Shown: positions 3,018-50,470 of the stretch, one piece after another
How the letters are laid out: each line of letters opens with the position of its first letter
Numbering within the stretch: position 1 is the first letter of the stretch
Assembly: GCA_001938485.1 (NCBI GenBank)
Contig: MQRK01223825.1
Location: forward strand, 5,564-56,495
DNA: 50,932 bases
Direction: 5' to 3'
Source of the DNA: Girardia tigrina
Lineage: Eukaryota
Notes under the pieces: model-generated
The model's input: the letters and a program-made list of their open reading frames with translations, nothing else
Database searches by the model: none
What the model was told of the DNA's origin: nothing
Position numbers and translations under genes: made by a program

Positions 3018-3661
3018 TATATATATATATATATATNNNNNNNNNNNNNNNNNNNNNNNNNNNNNNNNNNNNNNNNNNNNNNNNNNNNNNNNNNNNNNNN
3101 NNNNNNNNNNNNNNNNNNNNNNNNNNNNNNNNNNNNNNNNNNNNNNNNNNNNNNNNNNNNNNNNNNNNNNNNNNNNNNNNNNNNNNNNNNNNNNNNNNNN
3201 NNNNNNNNNNNNNNNNNNNNNNNNNNNNNNNNNNNNNNNNNNNNNNNNNNNNNNNNNNNNNNNNNNNNNNNNNNNNNNNNNNNNNNNNNNNNNNNNNNNN
3301 NNNNNNNNNNNNNNNNNNNNNNNNNNNNNNNNNNNNNNNNNNNNNNNNNNNNNNNNNNNNNNNNNNNNNNNNNNNNNNNNNNNNNNNNNNNNNNNNNNNN
3401 NNNNNNNNNNNNNNNNNNNNNNNNNNNNNNNNNNNNNNNNNNNNNNNNNNNNNNNNNNNNNNNNNNNNNNNNNNNNNNNNNNNNNNNNNNNNNNNNNNNN
3501 NNNNNNNNNNNNNNNNNNNNNNNNNNNNNNNNNNNNNNNNNNNNNNNNNNNNNNNNNNNNNNNNNNNNNNNNNNNNNNNNNNNNNNNNNNNNNNNNNNNN
3601 NNNNNNNNNNNNNNNNNNNNNNNNNNNNNNNNNNNNNNNNNNNTATATATATATATATATA
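3018..3661. other. Assembly gap flanked by (TA)n microsatellite
   Basis: N run 3037-3643 bordered by TA repeats; other N gaps near 13.9-14.4, 14.75, 22.0, 26.75 and 34.6-34.9 kb. Confidence 0.95.
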
Positions 3662-3754
3662 CAGTTGTACCCGCCTAATCCACTTAGAAATGAAAGGGGG
3701 CTTTTAAGAATTTGGCGGATTAAAAAAAAGAAGAAATTTAATAAAATTTATTGA

Positions 3755-6291
3755 TTAAAAGACTTTCATAAAATAATTATCAAGTGTATTTGTCTGTTTT
3801 TCTGATTTTGATCTTTTTCGCACATATTCCAACAAAGAATAAACATTTTTTAAAACGTTTTTATCAACACACTCCTCATTCTCTAAAACTTTTATAATTT
3901 CATAATTTACTGTAAGTATTTTCTTGAAATCATCTGGAGTAGATCTTCTGATATGAATAAATTCTTTATTTTCTGTTTGATTTTCTTCATCTCGATTCTT
4001 TCCATTTTTAATAAATTCTAAAATTTCTTCATGTGATTGCGGTTCAAATGTCACATTTTCTTCTTGATTATTAACAATCTCGTCAACAGTTATGATACCT
4101 GGTAAATTTAACTCACGTGATAATTCCTTTAGTTCTGACATGTCAATTTCAACAAGTTTCGCCCCTTCTGGATAATAAATGTAAAAATAGTTGATCCCGG
4201 GATAATGATGGATCAATTATTTTTACTTACGATAAAAGCAATTAAAATGAACTGAATCAACAAAGTATAAAAAAAAACCAAATCAATGATAAAAAAAAAC
4301 TTTAATCCAAAAAAAAATAAAAATAACCTTCGTACTTTAATTCAAAATTCATTAAAACCACAAAAGCATCAAAAATCATTCTATTATCATGAACGGTAAT
4401 TAATTATATTGTTATTTATTAATCGATTAATTTTTATTGATCTCTTTTTTTTAGTAGAATTAAAAGAATTTATCAAAATATTAAAATCATCAACAATCAA
4501 CCAGGGATTCTCATATTCGCCATCATATAATTTTTGATTGATAATTGATAATGATACTGGCTTATAGTTTATTTTAGAGGTATCATGAGTATTTGAATTT
4601 TTCGAATCATTTAAACTCAAAAACTCTTGAACGTTTTTATCATTCTTGATGAAGTCAAAAAGCACTTTAAATTCCGTATTTAATTCTTCTTTAGTCCGTG
4701 ATTTTAACGGAGAATCTTGCTTATTGACTATTTCTACCGCTGTTGTTGTCATTTATTATTTTACTATTGTCAAGAACCTTAATACCGAATGGAATGGCTC
4801 GAATCAAATCTTTGCCCCTCTTGTTGTAGGATTTTTTGAATATCAGTGTAAAAATATTATTAATGCATGAATAAATCACAATAAGAAATACATAAGTCTG
4901 ATTATCGTGAAAATAATATCTGGTCTCGTACATACATCATTCAAAGGTCCTTAGCCTCATTGTACAAAAATGAATCGAAACATAAATCCATTATACATCA
5001 CCTTCATCGCACACAGGAAACCCTATGTACAAAGAGCAACTAATCAAACCAAGACTTTGTACAAAAGCAAAAGAAAGAGTATAACATCTACACACAAAGC
5101 TTACGAAAGTAGCGTTTTACAATAAATATTCATTGTTATCGGAGATTGTTTCCAACATTGAGAAATTGTCTGTTATGTCACTTTATCCCAGGCAAAGTAT
5201 CAACATCTTTTAAAGTAAGACTTCTGTATGCATCAAAAACGGAAATTCCTGAATTAATACATGTCAGCACTTTGAGCATTTGCTGCTTTCTAAAAAACTT
5301 TTAAATGATCTTATTACACCCAAGTCCAATGGCTGTGTTTGGAGGCAGAAAAGCTATTTTAACATTTGACAAAGGAATCTGCGTGTGACTTGGACAGTTA
5401 TCAACTAATAAAATAATTTTTCTATTTTGTTTTCTCATTTTTTTGATTTAATTTTGTTATCCACGATTTATACAATGTAGAAGTCATCCATCCATTTCTC
5501 GAGGAACCGTATTCTATGTAATCTTGAAAATTGAAAGAATTAAAAGAACACGGCTTTATTGCTGTACCAATCATAAAAGGTGGAAGTTTTTCATCTGTTA
5601 AAGAAACACAAAATACCAAGGTTATTCTTGAAAGTAATTTTTTATTTCCTTTAATAGGAGCCTTTGAATTAGATCGGATGGGAACTGAGCGATAGTAAAG
5701 CCCAGTTTCATCCATATTAAAAATATCACGTGAATCGTAATTAGACATTAAAATTTTAATCGATTCTATTTCTTGAGAAAAAATCATTAATTTTAACATT
5801 TGCCATCTCGCCTTGCACTTTTCTTGCTTTCATTCCTATTCTCCTCTTTAAACGCGACAGAGTACCGTTTGACATACTGTAATTCTCTATATTAAGCTCC
5901 GCTGAAAACAATTCTGTCTGAGAGATAATTATTGCTTCAGTTATGGGATTGTTAATTGCTTCTTGATTATCACACCATAATTCTAAGGCTTTTTCTAAAT
6001 CTGGATATGCTGGTTGTACAATTTTCTTTGTTCCTGCCCTCGTATTGGCCGCTGCAGCCAATATAGACTCATCATGCTTCAAAATTTCACCAATTGTTCG
6101 CCTAATCGACGCCCCGTCTATTCTGCAATCCCCGCCCAATATGCGTTAAAATCATCAAATTATGAATTTTTTTTATTCTTTTTAAACTTCTCATCAAAAT
6201 AACACTTCAATTGAGCGTGTGTTGTCTTCTTAAATTTCTTCTTATATTGAATTATTTCTTCTTTTTGATCAAAACTTAAATGAATTCCCAT
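3755..6291 (-). pseudogene. Tigger-like transposase (HTH, CENP-B HTH, DDE_1), frameshifted and interrupted
   Basis: YPDLEKALELW..PITEAII; IFNMDETGLYY; LLVDNCPSH; PLDLGVIRSFK; AWDKVT..TISQCWK; C-terminal KQTNTLDNYF. Confidence 0.9.
4387..4752 (-). pseudogene. Divergent bromodomain fragment resembling CBP/p300, located inside the Tigger element
   Basis: KPVSLSIINQKLYDGEYENPWLIVDDFNILINS resembles the CBP/p300 bromodomain segment PMDLSTIKRKLDTGQYQEPWQYVDDVWLMFNN; EEL motif upstream. Confidence 0.6.
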
Positions 6292-12055: not shown

Positions 12056-13740
12056 TATATAATAAAATAAAGTTCTTGACAAAACCCTGAAAACTATTTC
12101 AACATTTATTAAAAACAGTTTTAAAGTGTCTCTGTCGTTTAATCGGGACTTGACGGTAATAATTAGAAAAGAGATTATTTTTCTGATGATTTAGTTCCTT
12201 TGGTGAAATTATTTACCAATGACCCTGAAAATTTGACAAAAACAAGTTTAATAAATAAAGAAGCGACCGATTTGAATGCAGATTGCTTCAATTTGTATAC
12301 GAATGCGAGGACCTCATATAAGGTGGTTAAATAAGTTGTTTTTGTTGGACGTATCAATTTAATACAAGTTATTTTAGCCATTTACAGAGGAACATTATCG
12401 ACAGTTCTCACAAAGCAAAGAGAGATTATTGAGAATGTAATTTAATTTATTGTTTTCATATAATTTTGCATTTTATTTTATTAAATAATTATTTAGTGAT
12501 ATAAATATCTTTTTATTCTTTCTCTCTCTCCTTCTCACTTAAAATACGGATTCAAATAAGCGAGTTTTCGAAATTAACTTGAATTTTTCGGAAGAACTCA
12601 AAACTAACGTGTTATGACGGCTCACATTGATTGTAATTGTTATTATTATGTGTAAAATTTGAATCATCTTTGGAACAATCAATAGTTGAGCCTTCAGTCG
12701 TTGACATCAAAAAGAATATATTAATAATTTTATCCGAATATCCGAATCAATTTGACACATGAAAAACCCTTTAAAAATATCGGTACGCGACAACTGGCCG
12801 CAGAAATTAATTTTATGACTCAATAATTTTTGTTGTTCAATTTTACAAATTGGTGATTATAATTTTATTATTTGTCACATTCTTCCGTTACATTTTATTT
12901 ATACTTAAACATTAAATTTCATTTTTGTTTTAGTAACATGAAATTTACTTTAATTTTGTTCATGATAAAACTTTCCTTAATCCTTAAAATTTTATTTTTG
13001 CCGTATATTACAACTTATGATTTTAATTGAATCATTTTAAAATTTATATTCGTCTGAAATTAAATTTCTACATATATTTTTTCAACAACCAATTTTAAAA
13101 TCTAGTTCAATGAAGTATTTGACATTTTTTTTAAAACTATTGGGTTTGATTATAAAACTATCTTTGATTATATTAAATTGCTAATCTGACTCTAAATCGA
13201 CCAAAAAGTTTCTTCCAACAATAATATATGAAGAATGAACACAGATCTTTTAATAAACTTTATTTGTAAATGACAACTTGAGCACAAAACTGAAATCGAA
13301 ACTTAATCACTAAATCAATAGTTTGAAGAACACTCAATCAACACAAACCAATATCAATTTAGAACGAGCAATATCTGAAAGTTTAACTTTAATCTTTCTC
13401 CTTTACAGGATACTAGATTTGTTTACAAAAATTAAATGAAAAAGATTACCGTAAATCATGATGAAATTTAAAACTTAATAGGGTCCGCAAATATAATTTT
13501 TGTTCGAAATTTTGTTGCGAATATGACTGAAATAATCATTGTTTATATACTAGTTTTTTCTAACCTTTAAAATTAGTTTACTAAAACAAATCTAAAAATA
13601 TTTAAAAATATTCTACAAATTTTATCAAAATAACTATTATGATAATTAAAAAAAATTATTAATTTTAACCAGAGAATTATTTTTAATTTTTTTTAATTTA
13701 AAAATTTTAATTTATATTTTTCGGAACCCCAACAATACTA

Positions 13741-14948
13741 TTAGGTGTACAAGTATGAAAGGCGGATTAAATTTTGAAAAGAAATACGTTAAAAACAAAA
13801 GAACGATAAAAAAAGCTTTATTCAAAATATGCTCCATTACTAATGATACATTTGTCCNNNNNNNNNNNNNNNNNNNNNNNNNNNNNNNNNNNNNNNNNNN
13901 NNNNNNNNNNNNNNNNNNNNNNNNNNNNNNNNNNNNNNNNNNNNNNNNNNNNNNNNNNNNNNNNNNNNNNNNNNNNNNNNNNNNNNNNNNNNNNNNNNNN
14001 NNNNNNNNNNNNNNNNNNNNNNNNNNNNNNNNNNNNNNNNNNNNNNNNNNNNNNNNNNNNNNNNNNNNNNNNNNNNNNNNNNNNNNNNNNNNNNNNNNNN
14101 NNNNNNNNNNNNNNNNNNNNNNNNNNNNNNNNNNNNNNNNNNNNNNNNNNNNNNNNNNNNNNNNNNNNNNNNNNNNNNNNNNNNNNNNNNNNNNNNNNNN
14201 NNNNNNNNNNNNNNNNNNNNNNNNNNNNNNNNNNNNNNNNNNNNNNNNNNNNNNNNNNNNNNNNNNNNNNNNNNNNNNNNNNNNNNNNNNNNNNNNNNNN
14301 NNNNNNNNNNNNNNNNNNNNNNNNNNNNNNNNNNNNNNNNNNNNNNNNNNNNNNNNNNNNNNNNNNNNNNNNNNNNNNNNNNNNNNNNNNNNNCTGCCTA
14401 TCGTTCAATTGATATGGTACCCATCGGCCGATCTTATGAATCTTTCCCATCTGCCTGAGGCGATTGCTAACAGCTTGTTGAGTAACACCTAATTGCTCTG
14501 CTAGTTGGTTTTTGTGTTTGCGAATCATCTTCGTCCAACAAAGCTTGCAATTCCATATCTGGGAAACCTTTTCGTGGTTTCCCATGGTCCTTATCTGCAA
14601 CATCAAAGTAACCACCATGGGAGCGCCGAAACCATCGTTCACATGTATCTTGCGATGGGGCATATTCACCATAAGCTTCTTGGAGTAATCGGTATGATTC
14701 AGCAGCAGTTTTCTTTAGATGGTAACAAAAAATTAGTACCGTCCGNNNNNNNNNNNNNNNNNNNNNNNNNNNNNNNNNNNNNNNNNNNNNNNNNNNNNNA
14801 TTATTAAAACGCTTTATCAATTTATGAGTTACGTATGAGACATTACATAATTACTCAATATTATGACATCATTGCCTAACCATTGACCTACTTTTTGCAT
14901 TGTGCACAATCCGTTTTCTGAAATCGCATTTCATACTTGTACACCTAA
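13741..14948 (-). mobile_element. mariner transposon, Mos1/mauritiana-like, partly in N gaps
   Basis: TIRs TTAGGTGTACAAGTATGAAA, TA TSD; RTVLIFCYHLKKTAAESYRLL, ELQALLDEDDSQTQ, GRWVPYQLNDRQ, C-terminal KCIISNGAYFE. Confidence 0.93.
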
Positions 14949-15966: not shown

Positions 15967-18232
15967 CAGTGCAACTCGCTTAATATGGTCATATCCGTTG
16001 TGGAACATTGATATTTGTCTTGATCTGAATTTCTGAATTCATACTAATGTTTTCAATAAATGAAAATCTGTTAATAAAAATTATTAATTATAAAGAATTT
16101 AATTAGTTGAAATTAAATCTAAACATTTTTAAAAAAAGAACATATTAAATTAATATATTAAAATTTTAAATTACATTAAAAATAAATAATACATTCAAAA
16201 ATTATTTTAAATCTTTTTACAATTAAATTAAATTATTTTTAATTAGTAGGAATCAAAGAAAATACCAATCATCCATCTGTGTAGGAGAGCACAATCCGAA
16301 TCAACATAAAACATGCACAATATCAACACACAATTCAAAACATTCCTCACAAATACAACAACCATCTAATTTATACTAGGTTTCTACATCAAGTCATCGA
16401 AGTATAAGTACAATAATAATGCATAAAAACAGTCTTTTATTGACTTTCTTACATGAGAACACAATACAATAACAATGTCACTCACGGACTAGAAAGAGTC
16501 GTATATCTTCTCGAACTAAGACATTCGTCTCGAATTTCCATAATGCTCACTAAGAGTTCGTGCACTTTGGAACAGAGATCTGTTCGAGTATGTCACACAA
16601 GAAATCATTCACCTTCATATAAATTTGACTGCAGAAAAAAGGTTGTTCCTTCATCATTGCTGGTATCTGAGTCCAGAGTAATTTCCTGGCTAGATCGTTT
16701 GGCAGCACCTTCTGCAATTACAATGGAGCTGTTTTAATAGCATAATAAAAAAAAGACATGAAACATCGAGAATAATTTATTTCAATAGGAAGTTGTACCT
16801 CCCTCGGCACGCAAAGGTTCTTTCACACGGCGACACATGCTTTCAGGCACACCAGAACAAAAGTTACAAATGGCCGAGAAGGAAAACCATATTTGCAGAC
16901 ATGTTTGCCGCAATGTCTCCTTGGGAACATTTCGTTTTCGAGCATCACGTTTCAATAGGTTCCAGGCTGTCTCTATCGGATTCATGCCTGCGCCGTTTCC
17001 AGCTCAAGACAACTCGGTTACTCCATCGTCCTCCAAGTGTGATCGCGTTTTTCTTGACGTGTGGCATGGGGCGTTGTCTTGTTAGAAGATCCACTCCTTA
17101 GTGCCATGCCAGTTTTCTGTCTGTGGGAGGAGACAGGGTTACAATGACTTGACAGTATTGTTGGGATGCCATTGAGCCTTCCTGCCTGTGTCGCCGTCCA
17201 GGTCCTCTGCTGGAGATGCATCCCCAGATCATCATTCTAGGAGAATATTCATGCCGACATTGCACATGACCTTGTTGAGTCTGTCCAGCACTTCTTCGAA
17301 CGAATTGGCTCCTGCGGCGACCTGCTTCCATCATTGTCTCATCAGTGAAGACAACCGCAATGAAACCAGATCAAGAGAAGATGTTCCATGTAATGAGAAT
17401 AACAGCATTTCATTATTGTACTCATTACGGTATCTAGCTTGCTCCATTTGTCTGCTGCCCAGCGTGCATGTTGCTTTGCCCACTGAAGTCGTTAGGCGAT
17501 TCGTCCTGCATGCTGCAAATGCTCTCGAATTCGACGTGCTGATACATTAGATGCAGCTCGCCAATCGTTTCTTTCATTTCCACTGATGTCATTTTCGGAT
17601 CGATCTAGCTGAGTGTAATGATGCGATTTGAAAGTCGCTCTCCAATGAGCTTCTTTCTCCCACACCGGCCTTTCTTCTGATTTGCGATGCTCCCAGTCTG
17701 TTGATGCTGTTTTAACAGACGGGACACTGCAGATTGGGAGTAGCCCACATTTGCAGCAATTACCACTTGTGTCTGGGATGTGTGGGTAGCCGAAGTCACT
17801 GTCTGCGCACGCTGTATAGCAGTCAAGTCCGTGATAATGGCGATTCTTGGAATTCGTTGAAACAAAATTAAAAATAGAATTATGGTGTCATTTTTGCACC
17901 CTGTACAATTGGATTGATTGATTAATGTTTACTGCACGTAGACTTTATCATTTTCACAACACATTGACCATGAAACTGATATAATATATCGAATTTCAGG
18001 ATTATGCAATTAAAACCGTCCCATTGTATAGTGCAGTCTTCCGCCATATTCTCCTCATAGCATTGGATCTGCGAGTCAATATCGATTTAGTCTTGCTTCA
18101 TTGATCTAGTAATCCACATCTACATTGTCAAACTCGTTAATATGAAAGTCCGATTTTTGGAAGCATTTTGTGATTCCGTTCATGGTAAATTTGGGTGTAT
18201 TAAGCGGTGACCACGTTAATCAGGTTGCACTG
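15967..18232 (-). mobile_element. Internally deleted pogo-like transposon with nested Tc1
   Basis: Imperfect TIRs CAGTGCAAC..TTAA..TGGTCA with TA flanks; remnant ITKCFQKSDF motif and a degenerate Cys-rich C-terminal segment near 16260-16380. Confidence 0.7.
16782..17903 (-). mobile_element. Tc1-family (DD34E-like) transposon, degenerate
   Basis: IAANVGYSQSAVSRLLK..GRCGRKK; VFTDE; MMIWGCISSRGPG; MNPIETAWNLLKR; ESMCRRVKE..EGGTTSY; TA+CAGGGTGCAAAAATGACACC TIR-like end at 17903. Confidence 0.88.
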
Positions 18233-30313: not shown

Positions 30314-30640
30314 ATGAAAGAAATTGTTCAATTGCCGACTGGTCCGTGTGGAAATCTAATTGGATCAAAAATTTGGGAAGTGATATCAGACGAACTTGGA
30401 GTCGATTTGATTGGCACATATCACGGAGATTCCGATCTGCAATTAGAGCAGATCAGTGTTTGGTGCAGTGAGGACACTGGGGGAGAGTGTGTTCCACGAG
30501 CAATAATAGTGAATTTAGATCCGGCCGCGATGGATTCTGCTTGAGCGGACCATTCGGACAGATATTTCGACTGGACGGTTTCACTTTCGGCCAAAGTGGA
30601 GCGGGAAACAATTGGGCGAGGGGATACTAAATCGAGGGCC
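30314..30640 (+). pseudogene. TUBB: Truncated beta-tubulin pseudogene (N-terminal about 110 codons)
   Basis: [63 protein letters not shown]; two stops and a frameshift, no introns. Confidence 0.95.
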
Positions 30641-30743
30641 CCGATGGGGATCGAATGTCGTGGGAGTTTACAGCGGGAAACAATTGGGCGAGGGGATACT
30701 AAATCGAGGGCCCCGATGGGGATCGAATGTCGTGGGAGTTTAC
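30600..30743 (+). repeat. Perfect 72-bp tandem duplication
   Basis: 30600-30671 equals 30672-30743. Confidence 0.95.
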
Positions 30744-32547: not shown

Positions 32548-33310
32548 TAAATTGAATTAACTAAAACTTAATAAAACGATTTATTGACCAATTTAATTTT
32601 AAATAATTATTATATTAAGATTCTTCAATTCTATAAATTTTTATTTAACAATTCTTCAGATTTATAACTATTTTCTTTATTTAATAACACTGTTTCATTT
32701 ATTTCGATTCCTTCAGTCATATCAACTCTGCACTCTTTTACCTCAAATTCTTTACATGATTAAAATTGGTCACTAAACAACATTCATATACGGTAATCTT
32801 ATTGGCTTGTTGTCGCTAAAATTTGCGGAAGTATGGTACTGGCTACCGGACCGAGCTGCAGTAACTATGACTTCTTAATCGAGGAAGAAGTTGCTGGTCG
32901 GAAGAGTCGTCCGACCATCTTGCGTGCGCTCATGAACCTGTTGAACCCAGTGGCCAACAGTCGACGTTCATACGAATGTTGGTCTTCTGACCAGCTTGTG
33001 GGAGTTCCCCGTTCAGTGTCACCATCTACGGTCAATCAGCTTATACCCCGATCGTTCACTAGTTCTTGTGAATCGTCCGTGTACCGATTCCCAGATTGAG
33101 ACGGCGGTAAGTCCGGCCAGACTGGTTTCATCATTGTAGAGATCGAGGTAGACGTGTTTGGATGGTATCGTGAGCGATAATTGATGGATAACGTGTTCGG
33201 TCTTCCGAGAGAATTATAGTACGCGAAACACACTTTGATTAGACAAATAGCAAACCGGTCACTCGGATTGTAGTATCTTTCAAATAACCGATTAAATATC
33301 GCTCAATTAA

Positions 33311-33542
33311 CCCTACAATGCGCCGCGATTCATATTTAAATCAACCATATTTTACCTCAATATCTTTTAATCACGTGATATTCTTTGAGTGTTTACATAC
33401 TGTGAACCAAAAGCATTGTCTATGGAATGATAACTGCCCATAAAGTCATAGATGCAATATATTTTGTCAACAAAAATTACAGTTCAGTTTGTAATACTGG
33501 CCGCGTGTTTTATGATAATTAAAAAAATTGCGCATTGTAGGG
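33311..33542. mobile_element. 232-bp piggyBac-type MITE
   Basis: TTAA TSD, 13-bp TIRs CCCTACAATGCGC; empty site in the sister LTR near 40212. Confidence 0.93.
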
Positions 33543-35066
33543 TTAAATACGTATTGAAATCATCAAAATCAAATCAAACTTTTATTTTTTTTAATTCCAT
33601 TTTAAACTTAAATTGATGCATTTAAACAACATATATTCATACTTATAAGTTAGTCACAACGCCTCTGTCTTTAATAGTTCTGGATGTAATCTTCCAAATG
33701 TTTCGGGTTTCTTCATAGTCTCCCGGGTCTTCGCAGGGCTTCTTCCAGAGTGTTCTCCGCATCTTCAGTTTCTTCAGAGGGAATTACCTAAACCGATGTG
33801 TAACTTTGAGATCGAGGAGCTAATTTTTAATTTCGAATATTTATTTCGAAGCCCTACTTCAATTCAAAGGTAAAAGGACCAATTGCCTTAACAAATCGCC
33901 GCATATTGTCATTTAGTGTAATCATTTCATCACAAACTTTGAATGGATTCTTTTGCAAAGGTTTTCAGTGATTATTGGCATAGTTTGCTTGAGCTCGCTC
34001 TTTAAAGAACAATGTGAAATCTTGTTGAGATATGTCTTTGTTTCAAGCCACATCCAACGAAACATCAAGTCTTTTGGAGATTTTTCAGTTATAATATGCT
34101 TGGTGGCTCCATAATTCCTGGCATAGTCCCAAAAATCATTTTTAAATTTCTCCAACGTCACAAAACCTATGATCTTTTCTAGCTTTTTTTATGTTTCTGT
34201 TCATCCGTTTCATAAGCCCATTTGCTTGAGGGTTGTAAATTGAAAAACGCTTATGCTGAATACCATGATTAATTAAATATTCACGGAAAACATGAGAGAT
34301 AAACTGTGCACCATTGTCCCTGACAATACAAGTAGGTAGTCCAAAGATGGAAAATAATTCCTCCAAAAAATGTTTGATTTCTAGTGTCGTAGTGTCCGAG
34401 TTTCTGATGGGCAAGTTGAAACCACCACTTCAAAAATTTTTATATCCAATTTTGCCACTAAGATATGTTAGGGTTCTGAAAAAATACATGTGAACACTTT
34501 TGATAAAATTTTATATAGGAAATTTTTAAATAATTCTTTTAGTAAAATTAGTAACTTCAAATAAAATAATATTTAGTCTAACAANNNNNNNNNNNNNNNN
34601 NNNNNNNNNNNNNNNNNNNNNNNNNNNNNNNNNNNNNNNNNNNNNNNNNNNNNNNNNNNNNNNNNNNNNNNNNNNNNNNNNNNNNNNNNNNNNNNNNNNN
34701 NNNNNNNNNNNNNNNNNNNNNNNNNNNNNNNNNNNNNNNNNNNNNNNNNNNNNNNNNNNNNNNNNNNNNNNNNNNNNNNNNNNNNNNNNNNNNNNNNNNN
34801 NNNNNNNNNNNNNNNNNNNNNNNNNNNNNNNNNNNNNNNNNNNNNNNNNNNNNNNNNNNNNNNNNNNNNNNNNNNNNNNNNAAAGCATCGTTCGTTTTGG
34901 GAGATTCACAGTTTTTACTGTAATCTGTTAACTCGCACGAAATATTGATTGTATTTGTATTCTGTCATCAAAGAATTGAGTTATTATTATTATTTGTGAC
35001 ATGTTGATATTTGTTATTTGAAATAAAGTTTGATAAAAGAATTTTTGTTCATTATTCATATATTTA

Positions 35067-35261: not shown

Positions 35262-36374
35262 GATATATAGGACATCCTTCTTGTCAGCCTTATCTAGAAT
35301 TAAATTCAACTTCAATTTCTGAAGCCAAACGAGAAAGTTCATTTGATTGGCAAATTGCTCGATTTTATGAGTAAAAGCCGTCATGGTGTATGATATAATT
35401 CCAAAATATTTAAATGGTGGGTGTAGTGCCCTACTTATTTTGCTGTTCTTTTGGTGACGTGTGTATGTGTGATGGGATAATGAATGAGTCTAATATTTTT
35501 AACTGTATGGTTACATGATTTTTATTTTTACGTTTGTGTGACCAGCTGATACCAGGGTTTTGTAAGATTTATTTTTATTTATTTACTTCTATTTGAGAAA
35601 ATACAATTGATTGTTTGATGCGATATATTTTTTGTGATTTTTTTTTATTTATTTTATTTTGTGTGTGACCGCGTTTTTTTTGGTGTTGTTAAACCTATTT
35701 TGTTTGGGAAAGGATAGATTTTTATTTTCTTTTTGGATAATAACTAACAGATATCCATTTATTGAAATGCTTTCCAATATCAATTTTCAGCATTTGAAAG
35801 ACTTGGTAATTTTGTTCCCCGAATATTATTATAGTGTATTAAAGTCATTTTTTATGCATTGTTACCGGTATTTTATTAAACATTGCCGAATGCATTTTTA
35901 TAGCCAAATAAAAAATTAAAAAATGAATAATAAAAATTCAAAAGCGAGATCAATCAAAATTAATTAAAAAATCAATAAACAGAATTTATTTTATGACTTA
36001 CTTGACTACAGAAATATTTCTTTGACGATTAACTGACAATCTGAAGTTATACAAATCTGAGTCCATACAAATTGCCGGCTATCAACAACATCAAGTATCT
36101 TTGTTATAGAACATTATAAAATCGACATTGTGACTGAATTAGTTTAAATTATTTCAAGAACGGTTATTTATTATTTTTATCATTAAAAATTTGTTTTGTT
36201 GATATTTTCAATCAGAGTTGAATTATTTTGATTTATTATCCTTGTTATTAAGATAAGGCTAATTAGCTAAAGTGACTTGTTGAAACTCCCTCTTTGTTCG
36301 ATAAGTACGGTTTCTGTTAGAGAACAGAGTGAGTTTTACAGTGGGTATAGTAGAACTAATCTCCAAAATGCAGT

Positions 36375-39300
36375 TGTAGATGTATAGCGTATTTATTAAC
36401 TATTAAAAAATAACAGTTGTTTTACTGTTCAAAATCTGAAATTCATTTGTGAGTTATTTTCAAATAATAAAAGATTCTTAGAGTTATTATTCTTTTTATT
36501 CATTGATCATCACCACAAGCTATCCGGGCAATGACAAGCATCAACGGAGACAATTCGTGGGAAATATTGAAGAAACAATTCACAGTGATGACTTCGATGC
36601 AACAAATGAAGGACGTTTCAGTGCTATTTCCGTTCGCGGTAAGTGGGTTGGCGCGGAATATATTCATGTAGCTTTCAGACGAACAGCATAGAAGTCCTAC
36701 GGAGGTATTTCGAGTATTAGATGTCGCTTTCGGAGTGCAACCTTGGAATGCTTATCAAAAATTGAAGAATATCAAATTGTCTGAATTTGATACTATCGAT
36801 GAGTATGCGGCCGAAGTATTGAGATTGGCAAAAAAGGTAGAAAATTTAGAAATTGCGTTGGAGATCGAGAGAGGGCGTTCGAAATTGGCACGAAATTGTG
36901 GAGATTAGTCTTACGTTTGTGAGCATCAGTAAGGGCACAAACGACACATCAATGGTAAGCATTTACGATCGGGCGGAGAGAATTATTCGCAGAGGACGGG
37001 CCAGTGGTGGCACTGTCAATGTTAGCGCTCATAAAAAGTTACTCGAGTTTGATGACAAGGATGGAGAAAAGGCGGATGATGGCCGCCGTAAAAGTCCTCT
37101 AGTTCGAAATAAAGATATTACTTGTTTCAGGTGCAATAAAAAGGATCATATCGCCAGATACTGTTAGGCAAAAAACACCAACGAGAAGTCGTCAGCGCCA
37201 GCGGCTTCTCGACAGAAGTAAAGACGCTTCCAGTGGTTCAGTGCATGATGAAGGGAAAATAGCTCAGGGCTCTGGTGGACACTGGCTGCTCTCGATTGGC
37301 CGTCAGGAGAGCAAAGTGGAAGAATCTGCTATAAGATTGGGTGATGACAAGGTCTCGTTAGCCAATGGGATTATGGGGTCCTGTATAATCGATATGATCT
37401 ATTATAAAAAATAGGTAAGATTAGATTGTATAGTTATAAGTGAATTGCCGGAGAGTTTGGATTTGTTGTTGGGAATGGAGGCAATTGAGAATTTTGGGGT
37501 ATCGTGTTCCATAATGGGCACGTAAAGTTTGGAGTTAATTTAGAATTATCAAATGTCTCAGTGTTAGCACGAGTTATAATTCGATAAATGCGGGTGTCGA
37601 GGAGGGGATTATCGAAAAACATAACTTCAGGATCCGGTTAGACCGAGAGTGGACAATCTACTGGGATTGGAAATCCAACGCACCGGAATATTTACCGAAC
37701 GGACAGACGCCATTGAAAGATTCAAAATCAAAAGATAGACGAACAATGGATATTTTGGAAGAGTGAGTGAAACGGAGTTATTTGGTCGAGTACAATGAGA
37801 GGCAGATGGGTAAGTCCGTGGGATCAATTCCCATTTACAGTATCGTTCAGGTGAATAAAGGCCAAATCAGGGAAGTTTTTGATTTCAGAAAAGTAAACAT
37901 GTATATTGACATTTACAGCGGATCTTCGGATGTATGCACGGAAAGATTACACGATAGGAGGAGAGAAAGTAAGGAATTCGTAATATTTGATCTTTCAGAC
38001 GCATTTATGCAAATTCATGTTGATCCAGCTTTGTGGTGCTTCCAGTCATGCATCATTAACGGTAAAAAGTTTGCTCTAAATTGTATAGGATTCGGCCTCA
38101 ACACAGCTCCGACTATAATGGTAGAAATCGTGAGAAAGGTTTTGTCATCAGATCAGAATATGAATGCCACCACGGGTTCGTATATTGATGACATTTTCGT
38201 GGATGACTCTAAAGTTAAAGCAGAAGACCTGCAGTAAATGTTCGATAAATTTGAGCTAGAATGTAAACCACCAGAGCGAGTAAACTACAACAACAGTGTG
38301 GGGGTTCTTGGTTTAGAAGTAAAAAATGTTGAGGGTGAAGTCACCTGGAAACGTGCAAACTAAATCAGAATTAAAGATTTATCGGAATTCATGTCTCGGC
38401 GGGAATTATATTCTCTATGCGGGCCATTGACGGGCATTTATCCGGCGGCACATGGGTTGAGGTTATCAGGTTCGCATAATAAACGAATGTCCGATTGCGA
38501 TTGGGATACAATGGTTGAAAAATCTGTAATGGAGAAGGTGCTATGGATTCTTGAAAGAGTTGAGGAAAGTGACCCCTGTCCGGGCATATGAAATATAAGA
38601 GAGCACAAGGCAGGCATTTTGGGGTGTGATTCAAATTCAATAGCCATTAAGGCGTTTTTGGAAGTCAATGAGGAAACAATAGAATACGGGTCTTGGATGA
38701 GAAAGGAGGGCGATTCGAGACATATAAACATTATGGAACTGGAAGCTTTGATGAAAGGTTTGAATATTTGCGTGAATGACATCATGGTGAAATGAGATAA
38801 TAAATCAGTGGTTTCATGGATGAAAGAAGTGATTTCTAACAGATCCAGATTAACCACAAGTGCCTCTTCGGAGTTATTGATTCGACAGCGTCTGTCTATT
38901 ATAAAAGAAATATGCGAGGAATTCAAATTAGTACTTAAAATAGAGTTTGTATCAAGCAATTTGAATAAAGCAGACGCGTTAACTAGGTTACTGAAGATTT
39001 TAACAAAACACGTATGCTGTACCATGATGGTTGTCGAAATTGAGAAATTAAAGGAACTCCATGAAAGATGTAATTTTGGCGCGAAGGGGATGAATTTTCT
39101 TTGCGAAAGGGAAAGTATCAAAGTTTCAGATAGAGACATCACAAATCTTATCTCAGGTTTTCAACAGTGTCAGTCGATTGATTCCGCACCAGTGAAGTGG
39201 GAAAAAGAGCATTTGTCAACAAATGAAAATTGGTGTAGATTGGCGATCCACGTAACCAAGTACAACGGTAAGAAGTATTTAAGTTTAATTGATTGTGGGC

Positions 39301-40174
39301 CCTCAAGATTTGCGATTTGGAAAGAAATCCAGGATGAGAGCGCGAGTTCTATCACACCAGTGATGAATTCAATATTTTTCGAGCGTGGTACTCCTAGGAA
39401 ATTGATTGTATACAATTATACTACATTTTATTCTAAGGAGTTTGTTAATATTATGGATTGGTGGGGAATCGAGTTAATTTACCGTGCTAGATATCGGCCG
39501 AGTGGCAACGGTATCATAGAAAGAAATTATTGGATGATAAAAAGAATTGCAGCAAGTTACAATATTACAGTCATGGAAGCATTATGGTGGCACAATAATA
39601 CCAAAGGGGAAGGAAAAGAACCACGATTTGAGAAATTTATAAGTAAAGATGCATAAAAGAAAAAGTTAAGGCGATCAAAAAGGAGGATAAATCAAACAGT
39701 ATAGGTGTTGAATATTGTGATTATTAATTGGTTTGGGTAAAACCCACTTTAAGCACAGGCTGCACTCAACAATGACAGAAGAGTAAAGTACTGGCAAAAA
39801 ATCATCATATTTGATCGAATGCGGTAAGTCTCATTTTCCTAGGCCCATTAGAGATATACGACCTCGGAGAATTGAACCTGACCTTCAGAGAGTCAGAATC
39901 AGTGGGAGCAGCAGCGATTCAGCTCAGGAGGAACCAGCGATCATGAATGAGAAACTCACACGGTGACGACCACGGTACTTGGAAGACTATATTGTGGAGG
40001 AAGATTTATCGGCGGAAGAATCTAGTGGGGGTGTAGATGTATAGCGTATTTATTAATTATTAAAAAATAAAAGTTGTTTTACTGTTCTAAACCTGAAATC
40101 GATTTGTGAGTTATTTTCAAATAATAAAAGATTTTTAGAGTTATTACTCTTTTTATTCATTGATCGTCACAATA
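36375..40174 (+). mobile_element. Compact LTR retrotransposon B (gag-PR-RT-RH-IN), full length, defective
   Basis: 143-bp LTRs 36375-36517 and 40032-40174; TSD GCAGT/GTAGT; CFRCNKKDHIARYC; ALVDTGCSR; DLSDAFMQ..GFGLNTAP..YIDDIF; HINIMELEAL..NKADALTR; IDCGPSRFAIW..SGNGIIER; PPT AGTGGGGG. Confidence 0.93.
36518..36529 (+). promoter_or_regulatory. Atypical primer-binding site complementary to the 5' 12 nt of tRNA-Lys(UUU)
   Basis: AGCTATCCGGGC directly abuts the 5' LTR; reverse complement GCCCGGATAGCT is the conserved 5' end of animal tRNA-Lys(UUU). Confidence 0.75.
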
Positions 40175-40409
40175 GTAGTATCTTTCAAATAATTGATTGA
40201 ATAACGCTCCATTAAATACGAATTGAAATCATCAAAATCAAATCAAACTTTTATATATAAATCCATTTTACAACTAAACTTGATGCATTTAAACAACTCA
40301 TTTATATTTATAAGTTAGTCACAACACGGATTTATCATGGAATCGTCAGACGCAGATGAGGTTCGTTGTTTATGATCCGATGAGATTTCAAAATTCAAAT
40401 TCATTAAAA

Positions 40410-44299: not shown

Positions 44300-46345
44300 A
44301 TCGAATTAGGTCTTATTTAATCATAGAGTACGGATGAAATTTCGGGATGGACTTAATTTCAGGATAGAAAAAGAATGGCTAGTAAGAAGAGGCAATAGTT
44401 AAAAGTTGAAAAATATGATGAGATCTGTACTCGTTTTTCGTAAAGTGAATCCTTAAATTTCATCGCACACGATGGATCTGAAATTCACGCGATACTAAAC
44501 TTCGAGAATAACGGCAGAACTTTGATAATATACAAGCGTTGGATCTCCGGAACGCCTATTTACAGTTACATGTTAAAAAGATTCTATAGAAATATCATAG
44601 TGTGTGTTATGATGGAATGGTATATATTTTGACAAGGTTTGGTTTCGGTTTGGAGTCAGCCCCACGAATAATGACGAAACTTCTAGAATAAGTGTCGAGC
44701 CTAAAAGAAAATATTCATTTTGAAATGAACATTGACATTTCAGTAGACGGATCGGTCATTTCCGTAGAAATTACAGAGCATTTGAAGTGTTTTGGTTTGG
44801 AATGTAAAGAAAATTTGGAATTTATCGGATCGAAGTTTTTAGATCTACAAATTTATGAGGAAGATGGAACAGTCATGTGAACGAGAAGAAGTTCAGTTCC
44901 GGAAATTTGCTGTCGTTTGATGAAAAAGGGTATGTTTTCGTTGTACGTGTTCCGTCCGACCTTCAGGTCGCCCCGAGAACCGGACGGATGTAGCAGGGTG
45001 TCACAGGGAAATTCTATGGATGAATTGCTGAGCCTATTTGTGTTCAGTTTGTTTACACACTCTTCTAATTTCTCACCGATCAGTCGATTTTTATCGGTGA
45101 ACTTTCATACGATCATTTTATCATCGCAACTATTACTATTATTATTGATCAATTGAGTTTGAGTAGACTGATCAGATTCAATTGATTATAGATCGGTATT
45201 GATTACTGAATCAATCGATTTCTTTATTGAACCGTTAATTAAAATTATCTGAATATCAGTGAGAAAATGATTAATTTGAAATTTAAATCGATATGAAGAA
45301 TGGAAATTATTGAGAAATATTGTTTCAATATTAATTATTCAAGATAAAGATAATTTATTTCCAAGAAATAATACAATCGCAAAAATCTTTGGCAATATTC
45401 ATGAATTAATTCGAAAATTCGTGAATCACACAAACATTTATTTAACAAACCGACGAAAATTACAAAGTTTAAAAAAATCAATATTGATCAATCACGTTGA
45501 TTCCGTCAAACAAACGTCAATTTTCGCGAAAATTCTAAATTCTCAATTTTCCCCCTTTGATAATCAATTTTGTTTCTGATTATAATTAAAAATAATAATT
45601 TTTAAATTATAATACTCAATTATATATATTTGGATACCGAGCAGTACGGACAGTTAGTCAGTTACTACCCAATTGCAAGAAAATTGAAGATATCTACAAA
45701 TTTTATGAGAAGAAAAAGTAATCTATATTATTGGCAAGAATCAGTATCTAAAAATATACTAAAAATGTTAGAAGATGTAATTCAATGAGTGAGAAATGGT
45801 GATCCTGTGCACGGTGTCTGGTATGTCCTAAGAAGTGAAAAGTAGGGAAAAGTAGGATGTGACACGGGTAAAATCACAATGGGAAGCGTACTGGAGACTA
45901 CAGGACAGATCGTATAGAATAGCTGTTAGTTACAACATGAGGCTGATGGCAAACACATCAATGTTGTCCAGCTAGAGGAAGTCGTGAGGGGAATAAATTT
46001 GGTGGTAATATGGGAAGTGAGAAAATTGAATATCGTTACTGATTCTGCATCTGCATTTCGCTGGTTGAACTTCTGCACAGATCAAGGAAGATTAAAGTGG
46101 TCGGAATGAAAAAGATGTTAGTCAGAAGGAGGTTAAGGATTAATGTGGAGATTTAAGAAAGTTATAACATGAAATTTTAACCGATTTGGACACCTTCTGA
46201 ACTGAATAATACCGACAATCTAACACAAGAGAGAATTTCGTAGTTGAATCGGAATCGTAGAGATATCTTAATGATGGTTAATGATACGAAGCTCTCTAGT
46301 GCAGATATCCGTCGGGAGCATTCAAAACATCATTTTGGAGTTGAT
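44300..46345 (+). mobile_element. Decayed RT-RNase H of a second element of the same lineage as element B
   Basis: FGFGLESAPRIM, HLKCFGLECK, FSLYGQLVSYYPIA (after removing insert), GDPVHGVW, KHINVVQLEEVVRGINL, VTDSASAFRWL, HSKHHFGVD. Confidence 0.8.
44948..45643. mobile_element. 696-bp TG...CA insertion with 5-bp TSD (solo LTR or non-autonomous element)
   Basis: TSD GTACG at 44943-44947 and 45644-45648; termini TGTTC...GAGCA; removal restores host element frame FSLY/GQLV. Confidence 0.8.
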
Positions 46346-46392
46346 TGAAGTTACAATATTTTTATTTGAAAAGAACTACACGTGAACAAATA

Positions 46393-46609
46393 CCGTATTT
46401 TCCGGTAGATAAGGTGCACCTATTGTATAACGCGCAGCTCTTACTTTTTGGCATCCTCTTTTATGTAAAGATAACGCTCATAGCAGACATGTTGGTATAC
46501 CTAAGAGGTATACATCGTTATCGTCAGTACATGATTCACAGTTCATATTTTGACAAAATTTAACATTTTTGTATAGATAACGGTGCACGTCATCTACCAG
46601 AAAATACGG
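46393..46609. mobile_element. 217-bp pogo-type MITE
   Basis: About 28-bp TIRs CCGTATTTTCCGGTAGATAAGGTGCACC / GGTGCACGTCATCTACCAGAAAATACGG, TA TSD. Confidence 0.88.
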
Positions 46610-47329
46610 TACGATATAAAATAGGTCATTCAGAATTGCGACGAATATAATGCAATAGATCCGAACTCTGTTCGGAGCAGAAAAAGACAATTGACGAAGG
46701 ATGAGAAGTGGAAAACCTTGTCGACGGATTTCACACATGATAACTGTACTCTCTCCATAACAATAATAAGGACTCATGGTGATTAAAACAAATACCGACT
46801 ATTTTGAAAAATTACTAACTATTTATTAAATTCTGCGAGCTTTTTCGGAATGCCTGCCATTAGATTTGCAATTGTAGTTTCTGTCACGTTTTTGGATGCA
46901 TTATTCCACTTGTTTCGAAAATCTGCAATCGTCTGTGTCCTCTTGTTTGTCGTAGTTCATTGCCTTTTTATCAGGGCCCAATATCTTTCGATTGGTCGAA
47001 GCTCTGGAAAATTTGAAGGGTTTTCCTCTCTATGCACCAAATCGACGTTATTGTCTTCGTACTACTTCTTGGCTGCCTTACATTTAGTTGCAAGATGCCA
47101 AATCCGGCCAAAAGAAAGTAAGACCTCCGTGCTGACTTATGAATGGTAATAAACGCTTTTGCAAGCACTCCTTCACGTAGACTTCTGTGCTTATTGTGCC
47201 AGATGTGATAAAGCATTTACTCATTTCCCCGCTAAAACATATAGCGTGCCAAACAAGAATTCTTTTGAGAAACTTAGATTTTTTCTCGCTTCTAAATTTT
47301 TCATCAACTCTTCTCTTAGTTGTAGAGTA

Positions 47330-47634
47330 CGCCTCCCTCCCGCGGTAATCTGCATACGCGCCTCAGGAGCCAAAGGAGCCGAGTCGGTGTTTCATCGGGT
47401 TTCACCCCTCAACTGATAGTGGGCGTTGTCCGAAGACATTTCCACATCCCGCTCGGATAGCAATGCCTTTTAAAGGAGTGGATTGCAGGCCCAGACCCCC
47501 GCACTATGTTGGTCAGCACCCAAACAAGGCAAGCTTCGGACACTTTAGCCTAGAGAATGCTCTAGTTTCCCAGGGACACCACGTGGAGGTATGTCCGACT
47601 GGCTTAACACAGGTTACCAAAGTAACAGGTCCCC
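47330..47634 (-). mobile_element. 305-bp ribozyme-headed non-autonomous non-LTR retroelement (SIDE/SINE-like)
   Basis: 12-bp TSD agttgtagagta (47318-47329) / agttgcagagca (47635-47646); GC-rich; splits the DD37E frame, which is restored on removal. Confidence 0.85.
47536..47634 (-). ncRNA. HDV-like self-cleaving ribozyme
   Basis: P1 GGGGAC/GTCCCT (G1-U wobble), P2 TCGGACAT/GTGTCCGA, P3 ACC/GGT, L3 TCCACGT, P1.1 CC/GG, P4 CTAGAG-catt-CTCTAG, J4/2 GCTAA with catalytic C at 47548. Confidence 0.88.
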
Positions 47635-48610
47635 AGTTGCAGAGCAAAATTCTTGTCCGGGCAGTTGGGAAAACTCACAGAGCACATAAGTCACATTATC
47701 AATAATGCAACATTTTTTCTTCAAAAGAAAACCAGATTTTAACTTTCTGGCTCTCTGCTGCGCATTTACGTTCTTGTTAGCATTCCGGTCTGGTACTGTT
47801 TGAAATTTATATGTTTTTAAACCCACAGATTGTTTAATTTTCCGAACTGTTTTTTTGCCTTTACCGCCAGTTTTCGATTTGATAGATGAGGAATTCTCTC
47901 TAACAGAGCCTTTACTTTCTTCACATTCTGTGCACACGAAAAACCCTTTCTTCTTCCCGAACCAATTTTTCTAAAAACGTTCAAATTATCATTAAAGTTT
48001 TTAATAACGTTAGAAACTGTTTTCTGACAAACCTTTACCTTTCTGGCAATTGTTTTCTGACTTGATTGTGGATTTTCTTGAAATAAACGAATAATTAATT
48101 CGCGACTTCATATTTCTGACGACATATTCATGAAAAATGAAATTTAAAAATGAATTTTATTTTGATTTATTCAAACAACAATCTACTTGATTAGTTTTTT
48201 TATTTTGTGAATTTATGTTGGAGTTATAGAGATTGAAAGTTAGTAATATTTTTCGCACTCAGTCCTCAGACTGTTGCACACGCTATTCCATTAAGAAAGG
48301 AGGTGAATTGGGAATCATCAGAAGAGTTACTGTTGCGGATTCATAAAAAATAATAAATAAAAATATATATGTAATTATAAAAATGTTAAGTGAAATGAAT
48401 CTGCTTTGTTTTTTGTGTGTGAAATCGATTGGAAAAATTATTTTGAAATTATGTCTTGTTTAAATATTTCAAATTAATGAATTTTTGTACATGACTATTG
48501 TCACAATTTCAATATTAAAATAAAAATTAGCGATTTTCTTTTGAATTTGTGTAGGCTAATTGATTTAAAAATCAATAAAAGTTCATTTAAACGTTAATAA
48601 TAAATGCAAT

Positions 48611-49193
48611 ATGCAACGATCGTCGTATGAATATTATGATTTTCGAACGGAACAATCTGCAGTTTTTGCCGATCGACAACCGGATTGTGTGTTCGATATG
48701 ATTCAGAGTGAAATAGCCCGACGATATCATTATTTGTTGCAGAATATGCCCATGTCGAAAAAGTTCAATCGTTTACCGTTTTGTTTGGTGATGAAAGTCA
48801 ATGAAACAATTTCGAATAAAGAGAACAATTTGAATGGATGTATCAAGTCTGGTTTTAAATTCTTCGATCAGAGTACGATTAATAAAAAATGTCATCTGAA
48901 TTTGTGTTCTCATCCGTCATTTACGACTGTTGTGTCGCATAGTAAATATCCGGACGTTAAAGAAAGACAGACGCAAATTTGGTGGTTGGAGAAATTGCTT
49001 AATTTGGAAAAGTTTCAGTTGATTAATTATAATACGACTGATTTGTATAAAAACGTTAAAATCTCCATTGATAAAAGATTATAATATTACTTTTATTACC
49101 GAAATTCGAGTTGTTCCATCATCGTTATTTATGGATCATATGGAAGAAACTTTTGAGTATGAAACAGTCGATAAACGTATATATTGTAAATAA
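48611..49193 (+). CDS. Hypothetical protein (157 aa to 49084; probably extends to 49193 via a +1 frameshift in an A run)
   Basis: ATG-started ORF without TE motifs; alternative frame continues DYNITFITEIRVVPSSLFMDHMEETFEYETVDKRIYCK*. Confidence 0.45.
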
Positions 49194-49236
49194 GTATGTG
49201 ATATTGAGAACTATTCTTAATTTGATTCTTTTGGGT

Positions 49237-49590
49237 ATGTGAGGAATGTTTTGAATTGTGTTGATATTGTGCATGTTGTAAGTTGATTTGGATTGTGCCT
49301 CTCCTGCACAGATTGATGATTTATATTTTCTTTGATTCTTACTAATTAAAAATAACTTAATTTAATTTTAAAGTAAAAAGATTTAAAATAATTTTTGAAT
49401 GTATTATTTATGTTTTAATGTAATTTAAAATTTTAATATATTAATGTAATATGTTCTTTTTAAAAAAATGTTTAGATTTAATTTCAACCAATTAGATTCT
49501 TTATAATTAATAATTTTTATTAACAGATTTTCATTTATTGAAAATAATTAGTTTGAACTCAGAAATATATTGATCAAGAGAGATGTCAAA
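49237..49590 (+). repeat. Inverted dispersed copy of the 3' part of the pogo-like element at about 16003-16352
   Basis: About 350 bp of clear reverse-complement similarity, e.g. gaggaatgttttgaattgtg..gatattgtgcatg and cagattttcatttattgaaaa. Confidence 0.88.
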
Positions 49591-50470
49591 TAGTGAATGC
49601 GCTTGTGACATTAATAAATGTTGTAAACCTCAATTTGATGTTGTTAATAGGGAACAAACCAAATACTTCTACCATCTGCTAAAGATGATAATAGTGATCA
49701 AACAAATCAAAAGAAATCATATTCTACAGTTACTAACACATTTTAGTCAAATATTTTACGAGTTTGGCCCCTAAAGTGGGTTTTAGCAGATAATGGGAAA
49801 GCTATTAAATCAAAAGCATTCCAAAAGATACACAAAGAGTGGAAAGTGAAGTTGCATTTTCGATGCGCTCCCAAGTAAAGTGGTAATGGTATAGTTGAAC
49901 GGGTGCATCGGACAACAAAGTGAACAATGGCAAGAACCAGTATCAATTCACGAAATGCTGTTTATTGGTATAACGTTGCCCCTCGAACAGGAAAAATACA
50001 TCCCCACAAGAGGAGCTGTTCGGTTAATGAACCACACGTCGAATCAGGTTATGATGTTGGGGAGCAGGAATTCAGTGCTGTGTAATGTTAAAAAAGGGAC
50101 AATATCTGGTATAAATTTCAAATTTAACGTAGATATGGAAAGAATCCATCGGTAAATAAAGACATAAGGAAAGTGAGTTTGTCGACCGAAGATGTTGTCG
50201 AGTCATATGGAGATGAGTGATTCGAGTTCCGACGAGTCACAAGACGGAGAGTTGTCGGGCTAGGAAAAATATTCTATGTTTTAGGTGAAGGAACTGGAGC
50301 ACGTCAATCGATTCGACAAAGGGTATCGCCCACGTATTTAAAGGATTAAAAGTTGGCATAAAACTTAGATGAGGGAATCTAGTATATTCGTTTGAATGTC
50401 AAAATGCAGTCTTTCTTTAATCACACTGCTGTCTGGGTATGATTCAAACATTTGAAAATTAACATTACGA
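49590..50470 (+). mobile_element. Integrase and 3' end remnant of the element-B-like lineage
   Basis: EFGP..VLADNGKA..EWKVKLHFRCA..SGNGIVERVHRT..AVYWYN; purine tract AGATGAGGGAA near 50368. Confidence 0.75.

Follow-up and report, generated by a model that had tools for sequence, protein, structure and literature searches.

Three primer types are listed for LTR retrotransposons in the available text of PMC6317226, namely the 3′ end of a whole tRNA, a half tRNA cleaved within the anticodon stem, and a self-primer. Half-tRNA priming has been described for Drosophila copia, yeast Ty5, the plant elements Osser, Bryco and Bianca, and rust-fungus Copia/Helenus (PMC10886601, PMC6317226), and, as far as the available text of PMC10886601 goes, priming by truncated tRNAs is reported at the anticodon loop and in Copia-order elements only. 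In the self-priming elements Tf1, Tf2, Tj1 and sushi, a 5′ RNA segment pairs with their primer-binding site (PBS) and must be cut free to provide a 3′-OH (PMC4600332, in the portion available). Here we describe a putative PBS of another kind, found in an LTR retrotransposon within a 50,932-nucleotide stretch of the Girardia tigrina genome (contig MQRK01223825.1), the whole of which is referred to below as the window. Like the half-tRNA site of Copia, as portrayed in the available sources, it points to a 3′-truncated tRNA primer, lacks TGG and lies at the LTR edge; however, the Copia PBS matches the anticodon arm, whereas the window site matches tRNA nt 1-12, to the tRNA's first base, and would imply a cut in the D-stem. 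Moreover, Copia carries its integrase before the reverse transcriptase (RT), whereas in the window lineage integrase follows RNase H (PR-RT-RH-IN), and the 12-mer motifs of the window lineage were absent from the supplement of PMC10886601. The closest geometry, judged from the available text on Tf1, is that of self-priming, in which a short 5′-terminal RNA segment likewise pairs with the PBS and needs cutting. In Tf1, however, this segment comes from the element's own RNA, whereas in the window lineage it would come from a host tRNA; the Tf1 PBS complements its own 5′ LTR RNA over at least 10 nt, in contrast to a longest run of 5 nt in the window copy; and in the window lineage, unlike Tf1, one 12-mer is common to unrelated LTRs.

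Structure of the window element and its match to tRNA-Lys

The window element is a decayed 3.8-kb LTR retrotransposon, an old and dead copy, whose features are collected in Table 1. AGCTATCCGGGC occurs once in the whole window. Because other copies of the window LTR, solo and 3′ LTRs included, terminate TCACAACA, there is no spacer between the LTR and the 12-mer. The sequence-only reading of this DNA had placed the 12-mer directly against the LTR, with the gag ATG at 36531, and this was borne out by the LTR pair and by the family copies. It had also seen no TGG-type PBS, and TGG after the LTR was indeed absent both in the window copy and in all 23 family loci spanning LTR and gag. Its estimate of a 5-bp target-site duplication (TSD) likewise agrees with the GCAGT/GTAGT pair of the window element, which has one mismatch, and with related elements, where the TSD was an exact 5 bp in nine of the 16 scored and matched at 4/5 positions in three more. 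In an empty-site comparison, the homolog of the right flank at window position 33270 begins GTAGT and the left flank has no alignment there; the repeat at 33267-33660 has its second copy at 40175-40325, which is the right flank of the element. Purine tracts similar to that of the window copy were also found in related families.

Table 1. Features of the window element (positions in the window).
Feature	Position	Strand	Evidence or remark
Left target-site duplication, GCAGT	36370..36374	+	right copy GTAGT, 4/5 match
5′ LTR, 143 bp, TG...CA	36375..36517	+	starts TGTAGATG, ends TCACCACA
Putative primer-binding site, 12 nt, AGCTATCCGGGC	36518..36529	+	exact complement of tRNA-Lys(TTT) nt 1-12
gag region, broken, from ATG 36531	36531..37167	+	reading frame and homolog comparison
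gag zinc knuckle, CX2CX4HX4C	~37117-37164	+	zf-CCHC E 0.01, below cut-off
Protease region, broken	37218..37557	+	tblastn (homologs P0001, P0009)
Reverse transcriptase core with YIDD	37767..38234	+	Pfam RVT_1 E 1.4e-8
DUF7047 (PF23088), between RT core and RNase H	38394..38564	+	27.5 bits against a cut-off of 27
RNase H region, interrupted by stops in the window copy, ends approximate	38592..38990	+	homolog comparison
Integrase core (rve)	39246..39500	+	E 5.6e-4, below cut-off
Purine-rich tract, likely PPT, ending GGGGG directly 5′ of the 3′ LTR	40014..40031	+	
3′ LTR, 11/143 differences from the 5′ LTR, terminal CA replaced by TA	40032..40174	+	ends TCACAATA
Right target-site duplication, GTAGT	40175..40179	+	

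Four host genes for tRNA-Lys(TTT) were found, all of which start GCCCGGATAGCTCAG, and AGCTATCCGGGC is complementary to nt 1-12 of this tRNA at 12 of 12 positions, so that the full match ending at tRNA-Lys position 1, which the sequence-only reading had based on animal tRNAs, holds for the host's own genes. Pairing stops at tRNA position 1, without running into the upstream flank of the gene, and at position 12, beyond which tRNA nt 13-15 (CAG) lie opposite the LTR end ACA as three mismatches. The remaining 15 of the 16 host tRNA types retrieved, an incomplete set, gave runs of at most 7 against the junction region and were rejected as primers. Self-priming was rejected as well, the longest run of the 12-mer against the LTR of the window copy being 5 nt.

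Elsewhere in the window, 44497-50004 holds fragments of another and more remote member of the lineage, separated by insertions; its RT, RH and IN showed 33-43% identity to homologs, and a 12-mer site was looked for in the window for this element and not found. The window also contains an inverted repeat pair of about 350 nt and 90% identity (16008-16351 / 49238-49589), an array of ~8-nt units from 2929 onward (2929-4500), overlapping long open frames that are probably simple repeats (13650-14714), and an exact tandem duplication of 72 nt (30600-30743).

Distribution of the site within and beyond the host genome

The window family is represented by 23 loci that span LTR and gag, several of them assembly duplicates, and among these the 12-mer was exact in three, differed by 1-3 letters in 19 and was disrupted in one. 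Across the genome, ACA followed by the exact Lys-type 12-mer occurred 2,144 times and the reversed-pattern control 0 times, which rules out a chance match, and the Lys-type 12-mer was present in at least six LTR families with unrelated LTRs. From 150 RT matches, 40 elements were chosen for long frames and spread of identity (RT identity to the window copy 54-69%). An LTR pair was found in 20 of them, and in 15 of these 20 the pair ended within 1 nt of the 12-mer; the other five comprised two with a shortened 3′ LTR and three that were unusable (wrong pair, gap, deletion). Both the LTR letters and the letters downstream of the 12-mer differed among the RT-anchored elements.

A second junction, AGCTATCGCGGC, which we call Phe-type, was counted 824 times genome-wide against 0 for its control, and the LTR ends that precede it are of many kinds. 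When 20 such stretches were fetched, the same Pol matched in 12, and an LTR pair ending at the 12-mer was seen in six, two of which are probably one insertion. The Phe-type site complements four host tRNA-Phe-like 5′ pieces of ~30 nt each, and the assignment to Phe is based on their agreement, at 23 of 25 letters, with the Drosophila tRNA-Phe probe given in PMC7038984. These four heads (L341, L342, L349, L354) are fused to a shared non-tRNA repeat, and when an intact host tRNA-Phe gene was looked for in the assembly, only the four truncated 5′ pieces were found. Tyr-type sites gave one match in the host genome and Thr-type sites none; Ile(TAT)-type sites, with four matches, were rejected, the two that were fetched being one mutated Lys-family insertion. 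Judged by its sites, the feature is broader than tRNA-Lys, with Phe-type sites dominating the lineage as a whole and one Tyr-type site found, in L305 (see below). The three outcomes that the sequence-only reading had named as refuting did not occur: the 12-mer is kept across copies and families, though exact in only 3/23 window-family loci, a TGG PBS was absent from the family loci, and the 5′ end of host tRNA-Lys agrees with the site.

The gag ATG lies 0-12 nt from the 12-mer in most copies, and 699 matches had an ATG within 12 nt of a Phe-type site (some sites counted twice). Such proximity is what would be expected if the 12-mer bound an entire tRNA to serve in packaging or dimerisation, or to control how gag is translated, while priming proceeded otherwise. 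We regard this as improbable, because the 12-mer occupies the exact place of a PBS, with neither a TGG nor a self-complementary site to take over that role, and because the ATG distance varies, with far longer leaders in L258 and L310, whereas the distance to the LTR end is constant. The long leader of L258, a metagenome member, contains after the 12-mer a tRNA-like stretch with a GGTTCGAA box (L258:1833-1950), in which ARAGORN calls no gene.

Outside the host, the same DUF7047 architecture was found in homologs from Oratosquilla, Amphibalanus, Macrobrachium, Portunus, Trichuris and Hydra. A scan based on protein alone yielded 78 metagenome and 6 MAG loci, not all independent, of which 50 included a gag start. 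The 12-mer was present near the gag start in 49 of these 50, the sole miss being a contig that begins inside gag. One variant, that of L300, had been put into the search pattern after being seen; the other 48 sites all start with AGCTAT, preceded by CA in every case but one (GA), and 44 of them finish with GGC, which the pattern did not demand. The middle letters of these 44 AGCTAT-nnn-GGC sites were TTC (17), CGC (11), CTA (8), CAC (4), CCC (3) and TCC (1). In five relatives both LTRs are complete, and there the pair stops no more than 1 base from the site. Variation among the 12-mers falls on letters that also differ between tRNA acceptor stems. The site AGCTATTTCGGC equals the last part of a Drosophila tRNA-Phe 5′ probe given in PMC7038984, and AGCTATCATCGG in L305 complements a tRNA-Tyr 5′-end primer published in PMC5371417, so that even the final letters of the site follow the tRNA. 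The comparison with published tRNA 5′ ends covers these two sites; the other variants in the metagenome contigs end CTAGGC, CACGGC, CCCGGC, TCCGGC or CACGCG, or read AGCGAACGCGGC.

In an RT-RH tree of the 54 rows with a site and a long enough segment, built by a quick method with a midpoint root and with kin that share labels, site types clustered, with 13 changes counted against a shuffled mean of 33.7, and the Lys-type sites formed one branch. Across deep branches, sites of the Lys, Phe and Tyr types all have their edge at tRNA nt 12. All 49 sites retain AG as their first two letters, the complement of tRNA nt 12 and 11, although this is in part a product of how the search pattern was built. 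The retention of AG bears on the idea that the primer is another RNA ending in the 12-mer sequence, such as the transcript of a tRNA-derived SINE, or else a piece of 10-11 nt with a spacer of 1-2 nt before the LTR. The four truncated tRNA-Phe-like heads in the host genome would suit the former, and retroviral PBSs, which lie 2-4 nt from the LTR in the account of PMC7472051, the latter; we nevertheless consider both together quite unlikely, given that a shorter piece fits poorly with the retained AG and that a site tracking three or four tRNA types is hard to explain by one other RNA. The tRNA types used all have UAGCU at nt 8-12, with A at position 9. G9 in tRNAs can be methylated, and avoidance of a methylated G9 may be the reason for the preference for A9 tRNAs.

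In viral contigs no Pol homolog was found, and a 14-mer scan of them gave ~130 matches; scans for tRNA starts there, which cover virus-borne tRNAs only and are uninformative on hosts, found tRNA-Phe in 11 of 25 loci starting GCCTAGATAGCTCAG and in 1 of 8 with a looser pattern. The ~130 matches show that short matches occur in very large collections, and on that ground the site might be a chance match or a family-specific relic. This explanation has a negligible probability in our view, given that the site recurs in thousands of copies at one defined position, behind many LTRs that are unrelated to each other, and in 49 of 50 relatives picked by protein, and that it covaries with tRNA identity. 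At E 1e-30 the Pol profile matched 1,982 protein clusters, which is a maximum, since elements of other kinds may be among them. This eukaryote-type element also turned up in bacterial MAG bins, with L331, L334 and L335 on one 25-kb contig at ~8.2-kb spacing and L332, L333 and L336 besides; these are likely host contamination.

Placement of the lineage

The sequence-only reading had suggested that the element might belong to Troyka. We rejected membership in Troyka / Kuafuorterviruses on four features, for which the descriptions in the available text of PMC12440569 and PMC11673190 give CG...CG LTR ends, a 3-bp TSD, a gag knuckle CX2CX8-10HX4C and the RT motif IADD/VADD/LADD, whereas the window and its relatives have TG...CA ends, the lineage has a 5-bp TSD and YIDD/YVDD, and the window knuckle is CX2CX4HX4C. 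The RT motif was YIDD in 55, YVDD in 42 and YLDD in five of 120 homologs, the window copy having YIDD. What the two groups have in common, as far as those sources describe it, is that they are animal LTR elements with short LTRs and the order gag-PR-RT-RH-IN, remote from typical Gypsy. The main text of PMC12440569 contains no occurrence of tRNA, PBS or primer.

With Ty3/Gypsy (Metaviridae) the lineage shares gag-PR-RT-RH-IN between direct LTRs, TG..CA termini, a TSD in the 4-6 bp range, a CCHC gag and an HHCC-DDE integrase. It differs in that the Pfam models RT_RNaseH and RT_RNaseH_2 gave no hit at E 0.1 in five of five full-length homologs, which carry DUF7047 and RVT_3/RNase_H instead of Gypsy-type RNase H models. 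The RH profile of the lineage scored at most 2.8 bits on 30 host Gypsy loci and at most 11.6 bits on 20 host BEL loci, and its RT profile scored 38.7 bits on host BEL and 31.1 bits on host Gypsy, one Gypsy family being sampled; by these scores the lineage RT is as remote from host Gypsy as from host BEL. BEL/Pao (Belpaoviridae) is distinguished by Peptidase_A17 (PF05380) in the RH region, for which the same number of lineage homologs (5/5) gave no hit. In the region of the GPF/Y module, behind the integrase core, G-D-x-V-W-V-K-P...W could be made out by eye in P0009, P0042 and P0067, without the GPY/F letters. A GFGLN motif, as GFGL..AP, was present in 95 of 120 homologs and had no match in the 418-element reference alignments of the Kuafuortervirus paper, in which long entries may be incomplete.

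By eye, the RT motifs of the lineage resemble those of DIRS-1 (RPVLD and the following blocks) as these appear in the supplement of PMC11673190; the lineage differs from DIRS-1 in having a DDE integrase and true LTRs, and a host DIRS outgroup of eight tyrosine-recombinase loci gave no RT. A search of PDB sequences returned weak retroviral and Ty3 matches only, the best at 5e-17, and in the ESM Atlas the nearest clusters were unnamed RT proteins. A sister branch (P0199, P0210, P0211, P0212, P0217, P0223) has PR-RT-DUF7047-RH in common with the lineage and carries a different integrase, with a stronger Pfam match, in a longer polyprotein; an integrase swap is possible. On these comparisons, the lineage is one marked by DUF7047 and known in crustaceans, nematodes, cnidarians and the host. 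Possible placements are a branch that has no name yet and one of the MolGy/PolGy clades within Gypsy in the broad Repbase sense; the available text of the MolGy/PolGy papers (PMC6238403, PMC8556966) mentions neither PBS nor tRNA, and the files searched gave no sequences for comparison.

Candidate priming mechanism and its implications

Substitutions within the site carry a further signal. Host tRNA-Lys(CTT) differs from tRNA-Lys(TTT) at one place within the first 12 letters, and at site position 6 of Lys-type junctions the change that matches Lys(CTT) was counted 19 times, against three of the other transversion and 15 transitions. The corresponding counts were 0 vs 7 at the same position of Phe-type sites, where no host tRNA matches, and 2:13 and 7:13 at the neighbouring positions of Lys-type sites. 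The excess was significant by Fisher tests (p = 9e-6 and 8e-5, the latter against the same-position Phe-type control), and the 14 Lys(CTT)-type copies that were fetched had different flanks and fell into about six families. Retroviruses copy their tRNA primer into the PBS, as described in PMC7472051. Either a second tRNA sometimes primes and is copied in, or Lys(CTT) variants stay viable; both readings call for action of the tRNA 5′ end at the site, and we read the excess as a mark of tRNA use. Selection on viable variants, rather than primer copying, could account for it.

The site lies at the LTR edge, extends over 12 nt, is conserved and varies in step with tRNA 5′ ends. We consider it likely that the lineage primes minus-strand DNA from the 3′-OH of a 12-nt tRNA 5′ piece, mostly of tRNA-Phe and, in the window clade, of tRNA-Lys. 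The sequence-only reading had proposed just such a 5′ fragment of about 12 nt, cut in the D-stem; comparative support for it is now strong, and the priming step itself is what we infer. In this mechanism the element RNA would invade a complete tRNA at its acceptor stem and its D stem. Energies computed for unmodified RNA, which leave aside tRNA modifications and tertiary structure, were -23.5 kcal/mol for the duplex vs ~16.7 to open both stems, a net of about -7. A cut in the D-stem between tRNA nt 12 and 13 would then free the 3′-OH, from which RT would extend directly into the LTR without a spacer. Plus-strand synthesis would copy the short primer to its 5′ end and so fix the site at 12 nt, and this copying might occasionally write the tRNA-Lys(CTT) letter into the site.

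As to the nuclease, we lean slightly towards the element's own RNase H, which would cut the RNA:RNA duplex much as in Tf1, with the tRNA supplied in trans. The catalytic D-E-D-D of RNase H is kept in 88-89 of 89 homologs, residues that every LTR element needs anyway. In Tf1 the primer cut is reportedly made by RNase H, and the self-primer is said to be 11 nt long; to our knowledge, RNase H cutting of RNA:RNA is known only for Tf1. Alternatively, the same primer might be made by a host cutter, with ready-made 5′ tRNA fragments being captured or a host nuclease reducing the bound tRNA, by cutting or trimming, to a length of 12 nt. Such a route departs from RNase H cutting by the element in the cutting step only, and as to the cutter we hold it to be a genuine but lesser possibility. 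It draws on the existence of 5′-tRFs and tRNA halves (PMC7472051), on the use by copia and Ty5 of a tRNA cleaved within its anticodon arm (PMC10886601, PMC6317226, as available), and on the mismatch of nt 13-15 with the LTR end, by which trimming of a longer fragment to its paired part would give 12 nt. However, an edge at nt 12 for Lys, Phe and Tyr across deep branches fits an element-borne ruler. RNase P, which has been proposed as the cutter in the copia model, would need a helix starting at the cut, and folding of nt 13-76 alone produced no new helix starting at nt 13.

In the literature covered, which extended neither to Repbase, Dfam, GyDB and the Troyka supplement nor to most subscription journals, no 5′-terminal 12-nt tRNA primer and no account of DUF7047 was found. 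Among the known modes of priming by tRNA fragments, a 5′-terminal 12-nt piece would very likely count as a primer of a new type, and we give a chance of about one in four that it has been published before. A fuller picture is tentative and, taken whole, somewhat short of an even chance: the element's own RNase H would remove 12 nt from the 5′ end of a host tRNA (Phe, Lys or Tyr) bound at the edge of the LTR, in an unnamed, superfamily-level DUF7047 branch; this fourth priming mode would bridge tRNA priming and Tf1 self-priming, and it would let the elements escape silencing by 3′ tRNA fragments.

If the proposed priming is true, it adds a fourth primer type for LTR elements, in a large and overlooked lineage with ~3,000 exact sites in the host genome alone. 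PBS finders that seek TGG or a tRNA 3′ end, as in the methods of PMC6317226, would call elements of this lineage primer-less, and CA|AGCTAT-nnn-GGC with an ATG close behind offers a simple diagnostic for annotation. A prediction of the mechanism is that tRNA is cut specifically at 12|13, which would give very short 5′ tRNA fragments a new origin or a new use. Finally, because a 5′-end duplex cut by RNase H would have the geometry of Tf1, the interconversion of priming modes would become testable.
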